The notes beneath the pieces are model-generated. The model had not been told where the DNA came from. It did no database searches and worked only from the letters and a program-made list of their open reading frames with translations. Shown piece after piece: positions 2,851 to 52,857 of a stretch of DNA of 64,000 bases. The stretch lies in NCBI RefSeq assembly GCF_000026545.1, contig NC_011601.1; one strand, written 5' to 3'. The translations under genes were made by a program, and so were the position numbers. The first letter of the stretch is position 1; each line of letters starts with the position of its first letter. The stretch is from Escherichia coli O127:H6 str. E2348/69. Lineage in GTDB: Bacteria; Pseudomonadota; Gammaproteobacteria; Enterobacterales; Enterobacteriaceae.

Positions 2851-4124
2851 GCCTGCTCTCCTTTTGCTGCGCCGTTTTTCAGCTTGAGTTGCGGGCGCGT
2901 CATGGGCAGCAAGCCCTGCGGACGCCAGATCATCATCAGCACCATCAAACCACCGAGCATTAACATGCTGTATTCGTTGAAATCACGCATCAACTCGCGC
3001 GATACCACCAGCAAAACAGCCGCCAGAATCACTGCAAACTGCGAGCCCATACCGCCGAGCACCACTATCGCCAGCACAAACGCCGATTCGGCAAAAGTGA
3101 AGGATTCAGGGCTGACAAAGCCCTGGCGCGCAGCAAACAACGTTCCGGCAAAACCGGCAAACGCAGCGCTGATGGTAAAGGCAGTCAGCTTGATACGACG
3201 CGGGCTTAAGCCCAGCGAACGACAAGCGATTTCATCTTCACGCAACGCTTCCCACGCACGCCCCAGCGGCATCCGCAGCAGGCGGTTAATGACAAACAGG
3301 CTTAACGCCACCAGCAGCAACGCCACCAGGTAGAGGAAAATGACGCGATCGGAGGGATCGTATTTCAGGCCAAAGAAATTACTGAACGTGTCCCAGCCGC
3401 CTTCACGGGCGGTACGGCTGAACTCGAGTCCGAAGAGCGTCGGTTTCGGAATCTGACTGATACCGTTCGGTCCGCCGGTAATTTCGGTGTTATTGAGCAG
3501 CAATATGCGCACAATTTCGCCGAACCCGAGGGTAACGATCGCCAGATAGTCACCGCGCAGACGCAGCACCGGAAAACCGAGCAGGAAGCCCGCCGCCGCC
3601 GCCATTAACCCGGCAATCGGCAGACAGGTCCAGAAGCCCAGACCGTAATAGTGATTGAGCAGCGCAAAAGTGTAAGCGCCGATGGCGTAAAAGCCGCCGT
3701 ATCCCAGCACCAGCAGACCAGAAAGACCAACAACCACGTTCAGCCCGAGACCGAGAATAATGTAGATCATGGTCAGAGTGGCGATATCCACCGTCCCACG
3801 CGACACCATAAATGGCCACGCCACTGCAAGCACCAGCAGCGCCACGAGGAACAGTTTCTGCTTCACCGTGGAGCCATCAATCGCGGGCAGAATAAACTTC
3901 GGCCCGGAAACGCTTTTTAGCCCTTTCTGGAAAGCAGGCCGCACAAGCTGGAAGAAAAAGACCACCGCCGTGCCGATAAACACCCACTGCCAACGGATCT
4001 CTGAAGCCGTGTCGACCACCAGTTTGGTGCCATCCAGCTCCAGTTGCACGCCCATAAAGACGCCCGCCAGCACAAAGAACATAGCGGCAGAGAGCAGCGC
4101 CATTGCAATATGCATCGGTTTCAT
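2847..4124 (-). CDS. livM: branched-chain amino acid ABC transporter permease LivM
   Basis: 425 aa polytopic membrane protein; 4-nt overlap with livG start. Confidence 0.94.
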
Positions 4125-5047
4125 ACTTTCTCTACCTCCGGGCGCCCCAGAATACCGGTCGGCATCACCAGCAGCACCAGGATCAGCAGGGCGAATGAGA
4201 CCACATCTTTATATTCCGTACTCAGATAGGCAGAAGAGAGCGCCTCCGCAATCCCCAGGATCAGCCCGCCAATCATCGCCCCCGGAATGCTGCCAATCCC
4301 ACCGAGCACCGCAGCGGTAAAGGCTTTCATCCCGGCCATAAAGCCGATGTAGGGGTTAATTACGCCGTAGAACTGACCGAGCAGCACGCCCGCCACTGCC
4401 GCCATCGCCGCGCCAATCACAAAGGTCAGCGCAATCACCCGGTCGGTGTTGATGCCAAGCAGGCTCGCCATTTTCAGATCTTCCGCGCAGGCACGGCAGG
4501 CTCGCCCCATACGGGAATAGCGAATGAAAATCGTCAGTGCCAGCATGGCGAGGAAGGTGACAATCCAGATAACCGCCTGCATGGTAGTAATAGAGGCAGA
4601 GAAGTTTTCGCTATGACCCACTACCCACTGACCGTTAAACAGGCTGGGCAGCGCCACGTCGCGCGAACCTTCGGTCAGGCTAACGTAGTTTTGCAGGAAG
4701 ATAGACATACCGATTGCCGAGATGAGTGCAATCAGGCGCTTAGAGTTGCGCACCGGGCGATAGGCTACCCGTTCGATACTCCAGCCGTAGGCGCTGGCAA
4801 TGACGATTGCGCCGACGAATCCCGCCGCCACCAGCAGCCAGCCGGTATCAATGCCCAGCATCATCAGTGCGGCGATGATCATAAAGGAGACGTAGCTGCC
4901 AATCATGTAAACCTCGCCGTGGGCGAAGTTGATCATGCCGATAATGCCGTAAACCATGGTGTAGCCGATGGCTATCAGCGCGTAGGTACTGCCCAGCGTG
5001 ACGCCGTTAAACATCTGCTGCAAGAAATACAAAAACTGCTCAGACAT
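4121..5047 (-). CDS. livH: branched-chain amino acid ABC transporter permease LivH
   Basis: 308 aa hydrophobic protein [11 protein letters not shown]...; overlaps livM start by 4 nt. Confidence 0.94.
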
Positions 5048-5094: not shown

Positions 5095-6204
5095 TCACTT
5101 GGCTGCCGTGGATGAACCGTCGGCATGCCACTGGAAGACACCAAAATCGAATCCCTTAAGATCGCCTTTTTCATCCCAGTTCAGCGGCCCAATTACGGTG
5201 TTTGCACCGTTAGCTTTTAAATCTTTCACCAGCGCCAGCGGCTCATCGCTGCCAGTACGTTCAAGGGCAGTTGCCAGAGATTGCACCGCCGCGTAGGTGA
5301 TCCAGACATAGGGCCCGGACGGATCTTTCTTGTCTGCTTTCAGCGCATCAACGATGCCCTGGTTTGTCGGCTCCTGGTCATAGCGTTTTGGCATGGTGAC
5401 CAACATGCCTTCAGCGGCATCACCGGCAATGTTCGACAGTGACGCATTACCGACACCTTCCGGCCCCATAAACTGGGTTTTCAGGCCAACGGAACGGGCC
5501 TGGCGCAGCATCTGCCCCATTTCCGGGTAGTAACCGCCGTAGTAAACGAAGTCGATGTTTTCTTTTTTCAGGCGGGCGATCAGCGCGGAGAAATCTTTCT
5601 CTCCAGCGGTAATGCCGTCGAAGAAGACGACGTTGGCGTTAGCCGCTTTCAGCCCGTCCTGCACCGAACGTGCCAGCCCTTCGCCATACTGTTGTTTGTC
5701 GTGAATGATGGCGATGCGCTGGGGCTTCACCGTCTCAAGAATGTATTTTGCCGCCGTTGGCCCCTGGGAAGAGTCCAGCCCGGCAGTACGCATGATGTAT
5801 TGATAACCGCGTTGGGTCAGCTCCGGATTGGTCGCTCCCGGCGAGATCATCAGAATACCTTCGTCTTCATAGATATCTGATGCAGGTTGGGTAGAGGAGG
5901 AACACAGATGACCAATAACATATTTAATGCCGTCGTTAACGATTTTGTTGGCGACCGCAACGGCTTGTTTCGGGTCGCAGGCGTCGTCATATTCCACGCC
6001 AACCAGTTTATCGCCCTTAATTCCCCCTTTGGCATTAATGTCTTTAATTGCCTGACGCGCGCCGTTAAATTCCATATCGCCCCACTGGGCAATCGGGCCG
6101 GACATCGCGCCGACAACGGCGACTTTAATATCGTCAGCCATAGCGGTGTGTGAAATTGTCAGTGCAATCATCCCTGCGATGATCGTTTTCGCATTCCGTT
6201 TCAT
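5095..6204 (-). CDS. livK: leucine-specific periplasmic binding protein LivK
   Basis: 369 aa from [11 protein letters not shown] (ATG rc at 6204..6202); signal peptide then [14 protein letters not shown]; paralog of livJ product. Confidence 0.94.
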
Positions 6205-6627
6205 AGTCAAAAATCCCCATTCGTGATGTTGTGTTGCTTTGTTCTTATGTGTTAACAAATCAGACTGTTCTTTTTTTATACTGCACTGTTTTTACCTGTC
6301 TGATTAAGGGTTTAGCGCAGTATTTTGTGATGATAGCGATTAAAATCCCTATTTTTCAGTCGATTAAGAACAGATAATATTCTGAATTTATTGATAGATA
6401 AACAGAAAAAAGCGCCCTTGTCAGCATAAAATAACGGTACAAAGGGCAGAATAATTCACTACCATTTAGGGGATTATGCTGGATATTTTTCATTCTCTAA
6501 TGTTTTAACTTTGTAATTATTGCTGAAAAAAAATTAATCACCTGCCAAAAGAAATAAAAAAGAGAAAGCCTCCGATTAAATTATTTCGCTACACTGGTTC
6601 CACTTTTGTGATTTACACGGGTTCCCC

Positions 6628-7011
6628 ATGAAGCTGACCATCATTCGATTAGAAAACTTTAGCGACCAGGACCGGATTGACCTGCAAAAGATCTGGCCGG
6701 AGTATTCCCCTTCCTCTTTACAGGTTGACGATAACTACCGTATCTACGCCGCGCGTTTTAACGAGCGCCTGCTCGCTGCCGTGCGGGTAACCTTAAGCGG
6801 CACCGAGGGGGCACTGGATTCTCTACGCGTGCGGGAAGTCACCCGACGTCGCGGTGTGGGGCAATATCTGCTGGAAGAGGTTTTGCGTAACAATCCTGGC
6901 GTTTCATGTTGGTGGATGGCGGATGCTGGCGTGGAAGATCGCGGCGTGATGACAGCGTTTATGCGAGCACTGGGATTTACGGCACAACAGGGTGGCTGGG
7001 AGAAGCATTAA
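6628..7011 (+). CDS. panM: PanD maturation/regulatory factor PanM (PanZ, YhhK), GNAT-fold
   Basis: 127 aa MKLTIIRLENFSDQDRIDLQKIWPEY...; position between livK and livJ. Confidence 0.9.
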   Translation: MKLTIIRLENFSDQDRIDLQKIWPEYSPSSLQVDDNYRIYAARFNERLLAAVRVTLSGTEGALDSLRVREVTRRRGVGQYLLEEVLRNNPGVSCWWMADAGVEDRGVMTAFMRALGFTAQQGGWEKH

Positions 7012-7040
7012 TCGTCAAGTTTGATTTCAAAAGTGATATT

Positions 7041-7140
<100 letters not shown>

Positions 7141-7198
7141 TGAAGCAACGTACTCGATATTAGCAATTTGGCGGCAACCCAAAGTTGCCGATTAATGA

Positions 7199-8302
7199 TT
7201 ACTTCGCATCAGTCGCCGTGCCGTTGGCGTGCCAGTCAAACACACCGAACTCAAAGCCTTTCAGATCGCCTTTCTCATCCCAGGTCAGCGGCCCCATCAC
7301 GGTATCCACCGAGTTCGCTTTCAGGTATTTAGCGATCTCCGCCGGATCGTCAGACTGATTCAGCCCCGCTTGCAAAGATTGCAGCGCGGCGTAGGTGGTC
7401 CAGACGAACGCGCCGCTTGGGTCCTGTTTTTTCGCTTTGATCGCGTCAACAATCGGTTTGTTCGCCGGAACCTGATCGTAGTTCTTCGGCTTGGTCACCA
7501 GCAGCCCTTCCGCTGATTCGCCCGCAATGTTAGACAGCGAGACGTTAGCCACGCCTTCTGGCCCCATAAACTGAGTTTTCAGCCCTGCCGCGCGTGCCTG
7601 ACGCAGGATTTGCCCCATTTCCGGGTGATAACCGCCGTAGTAAACGAAATCGATATTCTCTTTCTTCAAACGCGCCACCAGGGTAGAGAAATCTTTTTCC
7701 CCGGCGGTGATGCCATCAAAGAACACCACGTTAGCATTGCCTTTCTTCAGGCCGTCCTGCACTGCACGCGCCAGACCTTCGCCGTACTGCTGTTTGTCGT
7801 GAACGATAGCAATGCGTTGCGGTTTCACTTTCTCAAGAATATATTTCGCCGCCGTCGGCCCCTGGTCGGAGTCCAGGCCGGTGGTGCGCAGGATCAGCTG
7901 ATAGCCACGGGCGGTCAGCTCTGGTGCGGTTGCCGCTGGGGTGATCATTAAAATGCCTTCGTCTTCGTAGATGTCAGACGCTGGCTGCGTTGATGAAGAG
8001 CAGAGGTGACCAATCACGTATTTAATGCCGTCGTTAACGACTTTGTTCGCCACCGCAACCGCCTGTTTCGGGTCACAGGCATCGTCATATTTTACGATTT
8101 GCAGTTTGTTACCTTTGATACCACCTTTAGCATTGATATCCGCAACCGCCTGCTCTGCGCCAGTAAACTCCTGGTCACCGTACTGCGCCACCGGACCGGT
8201 CATTGCGCCTACGACGGCGACTTTAATATCTTCTGCCAGAGCCATATTGCTGAATGCCAGCGCGATACATCCTGCCAGTAACGCTTTACCCTTTATGTTC
8301 AT
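7199..8302 (-). CDS. livJ: Leu/Ile/Val periplasmic binding protein LivJ
   Basis: 367 aa from [32 protein letters not shown] (ATG rc at 8302..8300); ORF track start is an upstream extension. Confidence 0.94.
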
Positions 8303-45976: not shown

Positions 45977-46819
45977 ATGCTCAGTTATCGCCACAGCTTT
46001 CACGCTGGCAACCACGCCGACGTCCTTAAACATACCGTTCAGAGCCTGATCATCGAGTCGCTGAAAGAGAAAGATAAACCGTTTCTCTATCTCGACACCC
46101 ACGCAGGGGCCGGGCGTTATCAGTTAGGCAGCGAACATGCCGAGCGTACCGGCGAATATCTTGAAGGTATCGCCCGTATCTGGCAGCAGGACGATTTGCC
46201 TGCGGAGCTGGAGGCGTACATCAATGTGGTAAAACACTTCAACCGTAGCGGGCAGTTGCGTTATTACCCCGGTTCGCCGTTGATTGCTCGCCAGCTACTG
46301 CGTGAACAGGACAGCCTGCAACTGACCGAACTGCACCCGAGCGATTACCCGTTGCTGCGTTCTGAATTTCAGAAAGACAGCCGTGCGCGCGTCGAAAAAG
46401 CCGACGGTTTCCAGCAGCTTAAGGCCAAGCTGCCGCCGGTTTCCCGCCGTGGTTTAATCCTTATCGACCCGCCGTATGAAATGAAAACCGACTATCAGGC
46501 GGTGGTCAGCGGGATAGCAGAAGGTTACAAACGTTTCGCCACTGGCACTTACGCATTGTGGTATCCAGTGGTGCTGCGCCAGCAAATTAAGCGCATGATC
46601 CACGAACTGGAAGCGACCGGCATTCGCAAAATTCTGCAAATTGAACTGGCGGTGCTGCCAGACAGCGATCGCCGTGGCATGACCGCTTCCGGCATGATTG
46701 TGATTAACCCGCCGTGGAAGCTGGAACAGCAGATGAATAACGTGCTGCCGTGGCTGCACAGCAAACTGGTTCCGGCAGGCACCGGGCACGCCACCGTAAG
46801 CTGGATCGTGCCAGAGTAA
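45977..46819 (+). CDS. rlmJ: 23S rRNA m6A2030 methyltransferase RlmJ
   Basis: 280 aa from MLSYRHSFHAGNHADVLKH; ORF track start is an upstream extension. Confidence 0.92.
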   Translation: MLSYRHSFHAGNHADVLKHTVQSLIIESLKEKDKPFLYLDTHAGAGRYQLGSEHAERTGEYLEGIARIWQQDDLPAELEAYINVVKHFNRSGQLRYYPGSPLIARQLLREQDSLQLTELHPSDYPLLRSEFQKDSRARVEKADGFQQLKAKLPPVSRRGLILIDPPYEMKTDYQAVVSGIAEGYKRFATGTYALWYPVVLRQQIKRMIHELEATGIRKILQIELAVLPDSDRRGMTASGMIVINPPWKLEQQMNNVLPWLHSKLVPAGTGHATVSWIVPE

Positions 46820-46890
46820 TTGCAGCCATTGCTGGCACCTATTACGTCTCGCGCTACAATCGCGGTAATCAACGATAAGGACAATATGTC

Positions 46891-48243
46891 ATGACTAAAC
46901 ACTATGATTACATCGCCATCGGCGGCGGCAGCGGCGGTATCGCCTCCATCAACCGCGCGGCTATGTACGGCCAGAAATGCGCACTGATTGAAGCCAAAGA
47001 GCTGGGCGGCACCTGCGTAAATGTTGGCTGTGTGCCGAAAAAAGTGATGTGGCACGCGGCGCAAATCCGTGAAGCGATCCATATGTACGGCCCGGATTAT
47101 GGTTTTGATACCACTATCAATAAATTCAACTGGGAAACGTTGATCGCCAGCCGTACCGCCTATATCGACCGTATTCATACTTCCTATGAGAACGTGCTCG
47201 GTAAAAATAACGTTGATGTAATCAAAGGCTTTGCCCGCTTCGTTGATGCCAAAACCATTGAAGTCAACGGCGAAACCATCACGGCCGATCATATTCTGAT
47301 CGCCACCGGTGGTCGTCCGAGCCACCCGGATATTCCGGGCGTGGAATACGGTATTGATTCTGATGGCTTCTTCGCCCTTCCGGCTTTGCCAGAGCGTGTA
47401 GCGGTTGTTGGCGCGGGTTACATCGCCGTTGAACTGGCGGGCGTGATTAACGGCCTCGGTGCGAAGACGCATCTGTTTGTGCGTAAACATGCGCCGCTGC
47501 GCAGCTTCGACCCGATGATCTCTGAAACGCTGGTTGAAGTGATGAACGCTGAAGGCCCACAGTTGCATACCAACGCCATCCCGAAAGCGGTAGTGAAAAA
47601 TGCCGATGGTAGCCTGACGCTGGAGCTGGAAGATGGTCGCAGTGAAACGGTGGATTGCCTGATTTGGGCGATTGGTCGCGAGCCTGCCAATGACAACATC
47701 AACCTGGAAGCTGCTGGCGTTAAAACCAACGAAAAAGGCTATATCGTCGTCGATAAATATCAAAACACCAACGTTGAAGGTATTTACGCGGTGGGCGATA
47801 ACACGGGTGCAGTGGAACTGACACCGGTGGCTGTTGCAGCAGGTCGCCGTCTCTCTGAACGCCTGTTTAATAACAAGCCGGATGAGCATCTGGATTACAG
47901 CGACATTCCGACCGTGGTCTTCAGCCATCCGCCGATTGGTACTGTTGGTTTAACGGAGCCGCAGGCGCGCGAGCAGTACGGCGACGATCAGGTGAAAGTG
48001 TATAAATCCTCTTTCACCGCGATGTATACCGCCGTCACCACTCACCGCCAGCCGTGCCGCATGAAACTGGTATGCGTTGGACCGGAAGAGAAGATTGTCG
48101 GTATTCACGGCATTGGTTTTGGTATGGACGAAATGTTGCAGGGCTTCGCGGTGGCGCTGAAGATGGGTGCAACCAAAAAAGACTTCGACAACACGGTTGC
48201 CATTCACCCGACAGCGGCAGAAGAGTTCGTGACAATGCGTTAA
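46891..48243 (+). CDS. gor: glutathione reductase
   Basis: 450 aa [51 protein letters not shown] (FAD-binding fold and redox-active CVNVGC disulfide). Confidence 0.97.
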
Positions 48244-48249
48244 ATGTTA

Positions 48250-48283
48250 AAGGGCTAAGAGTAGTGTGCTCTTAGCCCTTAGC
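48250..48283. terminator. bidirectional hairpin terminator between convergent gor and dinQ
   Basis: aagggctaagag tagtgtg ctcttagccctt perfect 12-bp stem. Confidence 0.6.
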
Positions 48284-48296
48284 TACGTTTCCGCTA

Positions 48297-48380
48297 TCAG
48301 TTCAGAAGCTGAAGCAGAAAGCGGATCAGTTCCAGCAGCGCAATTAACGCCCCAAGAACGATGATTGCTTTATCAATCAC
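48297..48380 (-). CDS. dinQ: type I toxin peptide DinQ (single-TM membrane peptide, SOS-inducible)
   Basis: Minus-strand GTG-initiated 27-codon ORF (M)IDKAIIVLGALIALLELIRFLLQLLN; below the 60-aa ORF-track cutoff, found by direct translation; LexA box upstream. Confidence 0.8.
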   Translation of the reverse strand: MIDKAIIVLGALIALLELIRFLLQLLN

Positions 48381-48419
48381 CCGTTTTCTCCATGCGATGG
48401 AGTGAGAATGCATCCGCTT

Positions 48420-48510
48420 ACTCATCCATTGCCTGTCACGGCGCATGTCTCATTGTTAGATGACGACTATCTCACTCCGGCCAGAGCATCAGTTAACGGC
48501 ACCACCCGTA
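48420..48510 (+). ncRNA. agrA: putative agrA antisense sRNA (approximate bounds)
   Basis: First copy of a direct repeat (ttagatgacgactatctcactccggccagagca, about 48455..48490) that lies inside the dinQ 5' leader on the opposite strand; boundaries not determinable from sequence alone. Confidence 0.3.
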
Positions 48511-48573
48511 CTTCAGACCAGGACTTTGAAAGCGTTTATGCGCATTGCCAGAGTGAAAATGTCTCAGAACCAA

Positions 48574-48589
48574 CTGGATAATCATACAG
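48574..48589 (-). promoter_or_regulatory. LexA box in dinQ promoter
   Basis: Minus strand CTGTATGATTATCCAG, close to the CTGT-N8-ACAG SOS box consensus, about 190 nt upstream of the dinQ start. Confidence 0.6.
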
Positions 48590-48619
48590 TACTTGCGGGT
48601 TATAAAACCAGCATGTCCT

Positions 48620-48737
48620 TGCAATAGTTTCAGTATGGTATTAGCATTGATGCGTTAGATGATGGCTATCTCACTCCAGCCAGAGCCACCAACTCAGGGC
48701 TGAACAGTAAAAAAACCGACGCGAAGTCGGTTTTTTT
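48620..48737 (+). ncRNA. agrB: putative agrB antisense sRNA (approximate bounds) ending at an intrinsic terminator
   Basis: Second copy of the repeat (ttagatgatggctatctcactccagccagagcca, about 48655..48690) followed by hairpin ccgac gcgaa gtcgg and ttttttt at 48709..48737. Confidence 0.4.
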
Positions 48738-48913
48738 ACGTCCTGATTCAGACCTCCTTTCAAATGAATGCCCAACGCTTAATTCACACCTACACCTTTC
48801 TCTACACTTACATATTCGTTAAACCATATGTGTTTTTGACTTGTCCGCTTTGGTTTGTAACGCTGGTGGCGCTGGCGCTACACCTCTCTTTCACATCGTA
48901 ATGAGATACTGAT

Positions 48914-49339
48914 ATGAGCAACATTACCATTTATCACAACCCGGCCTGCGGTACGTCGCGTAATACGCTGGAGATGATCCGCAACAGCGGTACAGAACCG
49001 ACCATTATCTATTATCTGGAAACACCACCGACGCGCGATGAGCTGGTAAAACTCATTGCCGATATGGGGATTACCGTACGCGCGTTGCTGCGTAAAAACG
49101 TCGAGCCGTATGAGAAACTGGGCCTTGCAGAAGATAAATTTACTCACGATCAGTTAATCGACTTTATGCTTCAGCACCCGATTCTGATTAATCGCCCGAT
49201 TGTGGTGACGCCACAGGGAACTCGCCTGTGCCGCCCTTCAGAAGTCGTGCTGGAAATTCTGCCAGATGCGCAAAAAGGCGCGTTCACCAAGGAAGATGGC
49301 GAGAAAGTGGTTGATGAGGCGGGTAATCGCCTGAAATAA
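48914..49339 (+). CDS. arsC: arsenate reductase ArsC (glutaredoxin-coupled)
   Basis: 141 aa MSNITIYHNPACGTSRNTLEMIRNSG... with catalytic Cys in HNPACGTSR. Confidence 0.95.
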   Translation: MSNITIYHNPACGTSRNTLEMIRNSGTEPTIIYYLETPPTRDELVKLIADMGITVRALLRKNVEPYEKLGLAEDKFTHDQLIDFMLQHPILINRPIVVTPQGTRLCRPSEVVLEILPDAQKGAFTKEDGEKVVDEAGNRLK

Positions 49340-49387
49340 AGCGGCTATATTCCCCCACAGGTTGTTAGAAAAATGCGCTTTATTTAT

Positions 49388-49488
49388 GTCGGATGCGACG
49401 CTGGCGCGTTTTATCCGACCTACAAAGTTATGATAATTCGATGAATTGTATGTTATTTGTAGGCCTGACAGTCGTAGCGCATCAGGCG
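49388..49488. repeat. BIME (two REP units in inverted orientation)
   Basis: gtcggatgcgacgctggcgcgttttatccgacctaca ... gtaggcctgacagtcgtagcgcatcaggc. Confidence 0.75.
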
Positions 49489-49955
49489 ATTTTGCTATTT
49501 ACACAGTACTCCCTGCGTGAGATTCCAATTATCGCGTCCAGCATGGTGTATCAGTGAGCTGCTTAGTTATCAGCGATACAGTGCAGCAGTTTAAAGATGT
49601 ACTGGATTATGATCTATCAGTGGTTTACACAATAAATAATTTCAACATACGTTAACCTATTTTATTATTACATATCTAAAACATCACAAAAATATCACTT
49701 CACACACTATCAGAGAACATCATACCTTTTTAAAACGAGCATTTTCGATAGTTGTTAACGTTTTCTTTTGCGATATTATTATTGCCTTTTTTTGCACTCA
49801 AATATTACCAGATGGAAATAAAAGAGAAGTCAAAGGTAATTATATCAGGAAGATATGACGCATTATATTTACTGTATGTAGAAGAAAATCCATTCCTGTT
49901 CTAATTATCCAATTTAAAAATCTTAGCATAAAACAAATGATGAATAAGGAATGTT

Positions 49956-50340
49956 ATGTCAATTGACTTTACCCCAGGTGTAATAAATACATATAACGGT
50001 GATATTTATAACTGCACAACAAATACCGATAATGTTAAAACGCCAGACACACCGAAGTGGCCTTGTGATAACCGGGAAGAACAACACCCCATGAATGCCC
50101 CATTCTCTGGAGAATGGATACACCTCTGAACAATTTGATTTAGCGCAACAACGCCAACAAATTAATGCGTGCCATACGAACACCACATATACAAATGCAG
50201 ACTACTCAAAGTTGAGGCTCAACTTGTAAGTCTTATTAATAACATTGAAACGATAAGCTCGACACCACTTCCGCAAAAGACACAATCAATACTTAATCAG
50301 ATAAATAACATTAGACACGAAAAGATTAAAAACCTCTGAA
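49956..50340 (+). pseudogene. degenerate AT-rich coding remnant (possibly yhiS-like); frameshifted fragments
   Basis: 58-codon [46 protein letters not shown]... then protein-like reading ([35 protein letters not shown]) continues only in other frames with stops; low GC. Confidence 0.3.
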
Positions 50341-50522
50341 TATAGATTATGGAACAATGGATACTCATGCCACGCCCAAAAATTAACTGAGCTCAACTAA
50401 ACAGAAGAGATATAAACATCAGACAGGTTTACGTTACTATCAGGCATATCGCCTCAGAATCAGATGAAAACTATAAAGAAATATCTATTATGGTTTTAAT
50501 ATTTGTTGATAAGGATAGTAAC

Positions 50523-51089
50523 ATGAACATGACAAAAGGTGCACTCATCCTCAGCCTTTCATTTTTGCTTGCCGCATGTAGTTCAATTCCGCAAAATATC
50601 AAAGGCAATAACCAACCTGATATTCAAAAAAGTTTTGTTGCTGTTCATAACCAGCCGGGGTTATATGTTGGTCAACAAGCGCGCTTTGGCGGGAAGGTTA
50701 TCAACGTTATCAATGGCAAAACGGATACGTTGTTAGAAATCGCTGTATTACCGTTGGATAGCTATGCGAAGCCTGATATTGAAGCCAACTATCAGGGCCG
50801 ACTGCTCGCCAGACAAAGCGGCTTCCTTGATCCAGTGAACTATCGTAATCACTTTGTTACCATCCTCGGTACCATTCAGGGTGAACAACCTGGCTTTATC
50901 AATAAAGTCCCGTATAACTTCCTGGAAGTGAATATGCAGGGCATCCAGGTGTGGCATTTGAGAGAAGTGGTTAATACCACCTATAACTTGTGGGATTACG
51001 GCTATGGTGCATTCTGGCCGGAACCGGGCTGGGGGGCTCCTTACTACACCAATGCGGTGAGTCAGGTAACACCTGAGCTGGTCAAATAA
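50523..51089 (+). CDS. slp: outer membrane starvation lipoprotein Slp
   Basis: 188 aa from MNMTKGALILSLSFLLAACSS (lipobox LAAC). Confidence 0.94.
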   Translation: MNMTKGALILSLSFLLAACSSIPQNIKGNNQPDIQKSFVAVHNQPGLYVGQQARFGGKVINVINGKTDTLLEIAVLPLDSYAKPDIEANYQGRLLARQSGFLDPVNYRNHFVTILGTIQGEQPGFINKVPYNFLEVNMQGIQVWHLREVVNTTYNLWDYGYGAFWPEPGWGAPYYTNAVSQVTPELVK

Positions 51090-51241: not shown

Positions 51242-51772
51242 ATGTTTCTTATAATTACCAGGGATACGATGTTTTTCACCGCGATGAAAAACATTCTGAG
51301 TAAAGGTAATGTCGTTCATATACAGAACGAAGAAGAGATCGACGTAATGTTGCATCAGAATGCCTTCGTCATTATTGATACATTAATGAATAATGTATTT
51401 CATTCTAATTTTCTCACTCAAATTGAACGATTAAAACCTGTCCATGTAATTATTTTCTCCCCCTTTAATATTAAACGCTGCCTGGGGAAAGTACCGGTGA
51501 CCTTTGTTCCGCGAACTATCGCCATCATCGATTTTGTCGCACTCATCAATGGCAGTTACTGCTCTGTGCCTGAAGCGGATGTGTCCCTCTCGCGCAAGCA
51601 GCATCAGGTTCTGAGCTGCATTGCGAATCAAATGACAACGGAAGATATTCTGGAGAAACTGAAAATATCGCTAAAAACGTTCTACTGCCATAAACACAAT
51701 ATCATGATGATCCTCAATCTTAAGCGGATCAATGAGCTGGTACGCCATCAGCATATTAATTATCTGGTGTGA
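51242..51772 (+). CDS. dctR: LuxR-family regulator DctR (YhiF)
   Basis: 176 aa MFLIITRDTMFFTAMKNILSKG...; C-terminal HTH (LSRKQHQVLSCIANQMTTEDILEKL). Confidence 0.92.
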   Translation: MFLIITRDTMFFTAMKNILSKGNVVHIQNEEEIDVMLHQNAFVIIDTLMNNVFHSNFLTQIERLKPVHVIIFSPFNIKRCLGKVPVTFVPRTIAIIDFVALINGSYCSVPEADVSLSRKQHQVLSCIANQMTTEDILEKLKISLKTFYCHKHNIMMILNLKRINELVRHQHINYLV

Positions 51773-51828: not shown

Positions 51829-52857
51829 TTATGCAGTAACGCCTTCCGGTATCAACGAAGCAATTTGCTTACGCCATTGCGCTTGCTCCTGTTCACCTTC
51901 TGTACGTTGACCATAAAGTTGCGCTATCTGCGTACCATCATGGGCAAACAATTCCAGACTGGTTACGTGACCATCGCTGGTCGGTTTACGGGTAACCCAG
52001 GCTTCAGCAATGCTCTCTTCTAATAGATGAAGGGTAAACGTCGGGTTGAAAATATTCAGCCAACCTTTCATTGGCACCACTTTTTCTACCACACCGGTGA
52101 AAATCTGTACGCAGCCACGGTTGCCAACAAACACCATGATTTCATTGCCATCCTGCTGTGCAGATTCAAGAATTTGCGCCAACGCACTGTTGGATACTTT
52201 GCAGGCCAAATCGTCTGCCACCAGATTGAACGCCTGTTGGCGCGTCAGGTTGTGGCGCTTGAGCAACGTAAAAAACTGATGAACGTCGGTCATCGCCCGC
52301 CACTCTTGCTCGACCACACTGGCATCGGCTCGCGTTTGAACAACTGGCGCATCAACGGCTTTTAACTCAAGCGGCGTATTCTCATCGGTGATAAACCGTG
52401 CCAGAAGCTCACTCCATGCCGCCATATCGGTATTGTCGGTGGCATAAACTTTTAGTAATGCATCGCCCTGATGATCAAAGAACTGAATACTCTGGCGTTC
52501 GCCACGAGCCGTGTTTTCTTTGATGTGGAAAACACTGGCCCATTGATTGAGAAACAGACGTAAATCCAGCGCGCGCGGATTGAGGATCAATCCGGCATGT
52601 CCGTTCAAATGCTGGTTTGTGAACGAGCCAACTTGCTCATGGACTGCATATTCATTACGACAAATACATTTGGTTTCACCAACGCTTTCCAGCGCCGCCA
52701 GAATTTCACGAATATCGCCGCGCATCCGCCACGCGTCGTGCGTGACGCGTGCAAATGCCAGTTCTGCTTCGCTGATATTCATTAAACCTGCGATGTCACG
52801 CGCGTACTTTCCGGGATTTTGTTCTTTTAACTCAAGCCAGCGTGTGTAGTGGTTCAT
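51829..52857 (-). CDS. chuS: haem oxygenase / haem degrading protein ChuS
   Basis: 342 aa MNHYTRWLELKEQNPGKYARDIAGLMNISEAELAFARVTHDAW...; downstream of chuA on the same strand. Confidence 0.93.
   Translation of the reverse strand: MNHYTRWLELKEQNPGKYARDIAGLMNISEAELAFARVTHDAWRMRGDIREILAALESVGETKCICRNEYAVHEQVGSFTNQHLNGHAGLILNPRALDLRLFLNQWASVFHIKENTARGERQSIQFFDHQGDALLKVYATDNTDMAAWSELLARFITDENTPLELKAVDAPVVQTRADASVVEQEWRAMTDVHQFFTLLKRHNLTRQQAFNLVADDLACKVSNSALAQILESAQQDGNEIMVFVGNRGCVQIFTGVVEKVVPMKGWLNIFNPTFTLHLLEESIAEAWVTRKPTSDGHVTSLELFAHDGTQIAQLYGQRTEGEQEQAQWRKQIASLIPEGVTA

Follow-up and report, generated by a model that had tools for sequence, protein, structure and literature searches.

The stretch of E. 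coli chromosome analysed here (64 kb, in the following the window) carries its ars genes in a neighbourhood with the gene order rlmJ, gor, dinQ, agr, arsC, a yhiS remnant, slp, dctR and chuS. The gene gor occupies positions 46891-48243, dinQ encodes a peptide of 27 amino acids within an open reading frame on the minus strand (48297-48446), and downstream of arsC lie slp (within the open reading frame 50490-51089), dctR (51242-51772) and, on the minus strand, the haem utilisation gene chuS (51829-52857). Of the ars genes only arsC is present between gor and slp, which matches the published arsRB-deletion genotype of phylogroup B2. On its left, the ars remnant is bounded by a single gene for an Agr antisense sRNA together with its intrinsic terminator (48655-48739, plus strand). 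It matches the Rfam family RF02891 (AgrB) over the full length, scoring 91.5 bits where the gathering score is 40, and is the only match above threshold in the window, whereas the K-12 control gives two matches, agrA and agrB. The initial annotation, which was made from the sequence alone, had named this region dinQ-agrAB and thus counted one agr gene too many, but the distance that it gave is right, as the start codon of arsC (48914) lies 175 bp past the end of the sRNA terminator at about 48739. One agr copy is also found in UCPROB-002, where arsRBC is intact, so the copy number of agr is independent of the ars deletion described below.

The agr gene of the window is agrA-like, sharing with agrA 30 of the 31 nucleotides of the antisense region and 80 of 85 in total. 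With the repeat of its own dinQ (48456-48486) it forms 28 Watson-Crick and 2 G-U pairs out of 31, a pairing as good as that of K-12 AgrB with K-12 dinQ (30/31). The pairing of K-12 AgrA with dinQ is much poorer, at 24/31 by my count; Weel-Sneve et al. 2013 (PMC3567139) give 25/31. These pairings suggest that the dinQ toxin mRNA and the agr antitoxin may co-vary, and that the 'degenerate' agrA of K-12 resembles what would be the functional single agr of other lineages. An extra deletion of 199 bp is observed in three of the seven B2 genomes fetched (Ecol_867, Z0117EC0117 and strain 9), the agr repeat having recombined with the one internal to dinQ; this deletion is absent from the window, where the equivalent interval is approximately 48455-48654. 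The interval removed contains the agr promoter and the dinQ promoter, LexA boxes included, and without it the type I toxin-antitoxin locus is probably silent as a whole.

The arsC gene (48914-49339, plus strand) is intact and encodes a glutaredoxin-dependent arsenate reductase of 141 amino acids, recognised by the NCBIfam models NF007456 (302.5 bits, cut-off 242) and TIGR00014 (135.4 bits, cut-off 106.05) and 94% identical to ArsC of K-12. The solved ArsC of plasmid R773 (1I9D) aligns with it over residues 1-141 (E=3.7e-84). Since this alignment is free of gaps, Cys12, Arg60, Arg94 and Arg107, all present in the translation, are in place; in the R773 enzyme Cys12 is the catalytic residue and the three arginines form its arginine triad. 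By its sequence, then, the gene is predicted to encode a catalytically complete arsenate reductase. The R773 enzyme (PDB 1I9D/1J9B) is glutaredoxin-coupled and, like that of the window, 141 amino acids long with the four key residues conserved, but its gene belongs to a full arsRDABC operon that includes a pump, while arsC of the window stands alone. The GAGA ribosome-binding motif is kept in the spacer between arsB and arsC. Two substitutions were seen at non-catalytic residues: E68K, which is unique among the eight B2 sequences compared and otherwise occurs only in a 100%-identical dog isolate, RM14723, and L101Q, which the window has in common with Ecol_867 and GmM077. Directly 3' of the gene lie REP/BIME-like palindromic elements (49387-49466), with weak, sub-threshold Rfam matches to naRNA4 (27 bits) and ES036 (21 bits); a scan also flags a terminator-like hairpin at 49387-49406.

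In order to map the ars locus at the level of single bases, I compared the window with K-12 MG1655 3,645,500-3,655,500 (the reference locus) by BLAST and pairwise alignment. The arsRBC operon of K-12 (b3501-b3503) is the orthologous locus and is located between gor/dinQ-agr and yhiS/slp. A single clean deletion separates the window from K-12 at ars: the 1,686 bp from K-12 3,648,490 to 3,650,175 (positions 2991-4676 of the reference locus) have no counterpart in the window. On the left, rlmJ-gor-dinQ-agrA of K-12 is matched by window 46092-48753, and K-12 agrB with its downstream sequence, up to position 2990 of the reference locus in the arsR promoter, corresponds to window 48639-48850; on the right, the K-12 sequence from position 4677 onward, with the last 49 nt of arsB, arsC and beyond, corresponds to window 48853-50331. 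The left breakpoint is at window position 48850, 9 nt past the TTGACT -35 box, the right breakpoint at 48853, 49 nt ahead of the arsB stop, and between them the joint consists of two bases, TG (48851-48852), which can be assigned to neither flank. Exactly the same breakpoints are found when UCPROB-002, with its intact arsRBC, replaces K-12 as the reference. Inspection of the flanks of the joint revealed no IS element or long repeat beside it. Microhomology at the joint amounts to GCT(T) at most, and a plain crossover at GCT(T) yields the observed joint only with an additional 2-3 nt.

What is lost, in comparison with K-12, is the native -10 hexamer GACACT, arsR (117 codons in K-12) and codons 1-414 of arsB; what is kept is the ArsR operator, the -35 box, the last 15 arsB codons with the stop codon, the arsB-arsC spacer and arsC, and the operator, the -35 box and the arsB-arsC junction are recognisably as in K-12. 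That a deletion removed arsR and nearly all of arsB and spared arsC is thereby confirmed, and none of the results speaks against it. The absence of both genes ahead of arsC had been noticed in the initial annotation, and a tblastn search with ArsR and ArsB of K-12 found no further copy of either in the 64-kb window. Of a functional arsRBC operon, arsR is absent, arsB is far from full length and the promoter is incomplete, with operator and -35 box only. Further downstream, the yhiS remnant (49956-50343) is frameshifted and truncated, and it is shorter than in K-12 and free of IS5: positions 6171-8281 of the reference locus, comprising the rest of yhiS with its inserted IS5, are absent from the window. 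PGAP annotates the B2 equivalent of this remnant as a frameshifted, incomplete hypothetical protein.

The retained part of the intergenic region between agr and arsR (48740-48850, plus strand) is colinear with positions 2880-2990 of the reference locus and with UCPROB-002. It includes the ArsR operator (48810-48843, plus strand), whose cognate arsR gene is gone and which reads ACATATTCGTTAAACCATATGTGTTTTTGACTTG in the window; the ArsR binding sequence of K-12, as quoted in PMC6555750, is acacattcgTTAAGTCATATATGTTTTTGACTTA. In K-12 this binding sequence stops within the -35 box. The hexamer TTGACT (48836-48841, plus strand) is found with the same sequence at the same position in K-12, UCPROB-002 and NY1601, and from its agreement with the consensus and its overlap with the published operator I infer that it is the -35 box of the ars promoter. 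The promoter-like string that had been pointed out earlier, ccatatgtgtttttgacttgtccgc, contains this hexamer and is located at 48824-48848. The operator core differs from that of K-12 at three positions, and one could suspect a decay of the operator in the absence of ArsR. I reject this, as two of the three changes (GT to AC) are also present in NY1601, in which arsR is intact, leaving only one that is specific to B2.

Upstream of arsR in K-12, TTGACT is followed by a spacer of 17 nt and the -10 hexamer GACACT, with the start of arsR 24 nt after the latter. In the window the sequence brought in by the deletion places a different hexamer, AACGCT (48859-48864, plus strand), 17 nt after TTGACT, with a TG at 48856-48857. 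Read from the sequence, this is a hypothetical candidate for a hybrid -10 box, and behind TTGACT the TG and AACGCT together would form an extended -10-like arrangement and thus a weak hybrid promoter. AACGCT matches the consensus at two of six positions, it is variable within B2 (of the eight B2 sequences, five have AACTCT and the others AACGCT), and it is not called by a consensus promoter scan. The initial annotation had supposed an internal deletion that fused the ars promoter to the end of arsB; the deletion is now mapped to the base, but the promoter did not come through intact, since its native -10 box was lost.

To the right of the joint, the last 15 codons of arsB (FVTLVALALHLSFTS) and the stop codon TAA (48853-48901, plus strand) align with nucleotides 1242-1290 of K-12 arsB. 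They are all that remains of the 429 codons of the gene, and this remnant is non-functional. It is also what the initial annotation had seen as the 3' tail of a gene for a membrane protein, an open frame that ends in VTLVALALHLSFTS and TAA 12 nt before the start codon of arsC. The complete open frame is 45 codons long (48764-48901, plus strand) and arises because the arsB frame happens to extend back into the promoter region. I do not regard it as a gene for a small membrane protein: there is no Shine-Dalgarno sequence, and its ATG is upstream of the only candidate promoter. No family match was found for the 45-codon frame, and PGAP leaves it without annotation in those B2 genomes that have the same sequence. 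Within the arsB tail a B2-specific change of CT to TG extends the G+C stem of a hairpin (48866-48881) from about 4 to 6 pairs. The scan flags this hairpin as terminator-like, and a terminator here could block transcription into arsC; with a folding z of 0.3, a similar folding of K-12 and a poor T-tract, I do not assign it that role, and the hairpin is probably meaningless.

The arsB remnant is also decisive as to the direction of the event. In principle, a locus with arsC only could be ancestral, with arsR and arsB acquired by insertion in E. coli outside B2 and nothing lost in B2 itself; it is the logical alternative for any presence/absence polymorphism, but I found no evidence in its favour. 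A site that never received the insertion should hold no truncated end of a gene, and the window contains an in-frame 3' fragment of arsB of 15 codons; by its sequence, this fragment effectively refutes the insertion. Likewise, an ancestor with arsC only would have had no purpose for an operator and a -35 box in the absence of arsR and arsB, and yet both are kept. Sütterlin et al. (AAC 62:e00209-18, 2018; PMC5923176) observed that the phylogenies of arsRBC and of ribosomal genes agree, which favours a loss in B2 over a gain elsewhere. I therefore give an ancestral locus with only arsC virtually no chance, and very probably a deletion of arsRB characteristic of B2 left arsC intact behind it.

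The loss itself is known from the literature. Sütterlin and co-workers found only arsC between gor and slp in B2, with arsRB absent and arsC retained in all B2 isolates of their collection, whereas all non-B2 groups carry arsRBC or arsRDABC. For every isolate without arsRB they reported a sodium arsenite MIC of less than 128 mg/L, and three ST131 isolates negative for arsR and arsB likewise had the lowest As(III) MICs of another study (PMC9731454). The window shares with these genotypes the locus (gor, arsC, slp) and the arsC-only content, the lineages concerned (S88 and O25b:H4-ST131) carry the identical joint, and the arsenite sensitivity predicted from its genotype agrees with that measured in the published B2 isolates. 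Both papers describe the genotype in terms of which genes are present or absent, and there is no difference of substance from the window. While the gene loss and the arsenite sensitivity are thus already published, this study adds the joint at base level, the fate of the promoter, of which operator and -35 box were kept and the -10 box was lost, and the count among complete genomes.

For this count, I used a query of 311 bp spanning the joint against 5,426 complete E. coli genomes, where a match had to cover at least 80% of the query in one piece. Such a match is present in 1,111 genomes, S88 among them, and a further search showed that O25b:H4-ST131 strains bear the joint as well. The segment of K-12 that is deleted in the window is present in 4,320 of the 5,426 genomes, so that joint and segment are nearly complementary, with an overlap of at least 5, perhaps about 20, of the 1,111 joint-bearing genomes. 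The window and seven joint-bearing genomes, chosen across the range of identities and including S88 and strains of the ST131 type, were then compared base by base, and the joint is identical in all eight sequences. With the same joint in 1,111 genomes and in every sequence inspected, it is not due to chance, and the base-for-base identity of the eight apparently reflects one old, ancestral deletion event.

S88 and ST131 belong to phylogroup B2, as is also recorded in the literature, and B2 is defined in Clermont typing by chuA+, yjaA+ and TspE4.C2 +/-. Whereas yjaA and TspE4.C2 are outside the window, the presence of chuS implies a chu locus. The gene chuS follows directly after dctR; phylogroups positive for chuA (B2, D, E and F) likewise have a chu locus, and this is consistent with B2. 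By the joint that it shares with S88 and ST131, together with chuS, the strain from which the window derives would belong to B2.

The most probable history, then, is that an old deletion characteristic of B2 took 1,686 bp out of the chromosomal arsRBC operon. As the initial annotation had anticipated, this would leave the cell without both the ArsB efflux pump for arsenite and antimonite and the As(III)-sensing repressor ArsR at the ars locus, as both genes lie within the deleted segment save for the 15-codon arsB tail. A sensitivity to arsenite would follow from the missing pump and sensor, the phenotype itself being taken from the published B2 isolates. As regards arsC, the native -10 box is gone, so its transcription must use one of three routes. 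The first would be the weak hybrid promoter at the joint, composed of TTGACT, 17 nt and AACGCT with the upstream TG; the second would be read-through past the agr terminator, which is unlikely because this terminator is strong; and the third would be a start that has escaped recognition. If arsC is transcribed, it should be unresponsive to arsenic because there is no ArsR at the locus. Both the route and the level of arsC expression are inferred here; searches of the literature for expression of arsC by B2 or by UPEC strains found nothing relevant.

Why arsC was retained in all B2 isolates was left open by Sütterlin et al., who raised the possibility of an unknown function of the gene (PMC5923176). 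One could think of an adaptive rewiring, in which the deletion created a new promoter independent of ArsR and arsC is expressed constitutively and kept for a function other than arsenic resistance. The joint indeed placed TGTAACGCT exactly 17 nt past a good -35 box, TTGACT. The gene is intact in all eight B2 sequences, no pseudogene flag is found in any of the B2 entries listed, and the unknown function raised by Sütterlin et al. would fit as well. The proposal is weakened by the candidate -10 box itself, with its two matches out of six, its variation between AACGCT and AACTCT in B2 and its escape from the promoter scan, and by the silence of the literature on arsC expression in B2. Moreover, the divergence within B2 is small here (dS ~0.04), and an intact open reading frame of 426 bp is expected over such a distance even when unselected. 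I consider an adaptive rewiring unlikely.

Alternatively, arsC could be a silent relic in slow decay, with neither promoter nor function and intact only because little time has passed. The deletion of the native -10 box and the strong agr terminator directly upstream point in this direction, and the reduction of arsenate to arsenite brings no obvious benefit to a cell that has no pump. However, a full-length reading frame with its catalytic residues is present in every B2 sequence inspected, and arsC was kept in all B2 isolates of Sütterlin et al. (PMC5923176), which is not what one would expect of a relic. That arsC is such a relic is conceivable, though I regard it as rather doubtful.

The patterns of substitution bear on both explanations. 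In comparison with NY1601, the closest relative with an intact operon, 6 of 49 nucleotides differ in the arsB tail and 14 of 426 in arsC (Fisher p=0.011). The counts are small, but the faster divergence of the arsB tail is suggestive of an unconstrained drift beside a more constrained arsC; it speaks for a rewired and functional arsC and against a decaying one, as the tail next to the gene changed proportionally more. Pairwise dN/dS values for arsC between B2 and non-B2 genomes are 0.11-0.27, but most of the branches compared are older than the deletion or fall outside B2. Among the eight B2 sequences, the segregating codons are 4 synonymous and 4 non-synonymous, where about 1:3 would be neutral (binomial p=0.10). 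Neutrality is not rejected by these numbers, which counts against a rewired gene under selection and is compatible with a relic. Selection on arsC within B2 is thus suggestive at best, judged from these substitutions. In its most specific form, the proposal would be that the joint made a promoter independent of ArsR, with TGTAACGCT 17 nt from the -35 box, and that arsC is selected for a redox or thiol-linked or other role outside resistance; I hold this combination to be quite improbable. If such a role were true, it would explain why arsC is kept in every B2 isolate in spite of an arsenite that cannot be pumped out.

For the annotation of these genomes, the joint at base level is of use because the arsB fragment of 49 nt and the orphan ArsR operator could be labelled as remnants, and it could serve for the design of a junction PCR. 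The arsRB deletion is a clean lineage marker, as has already been published. The loss of the -10 box corrects the assumption, also made in the initial annotation as a possible constitutive expression, of an arsC that is simply derepressed. Finally, as is established in the literature, the loss of arsRB explains the arsenite sensitivity of the clinically dominant B2/ExPEC lineages, ST131, ST73, ST95 and others.
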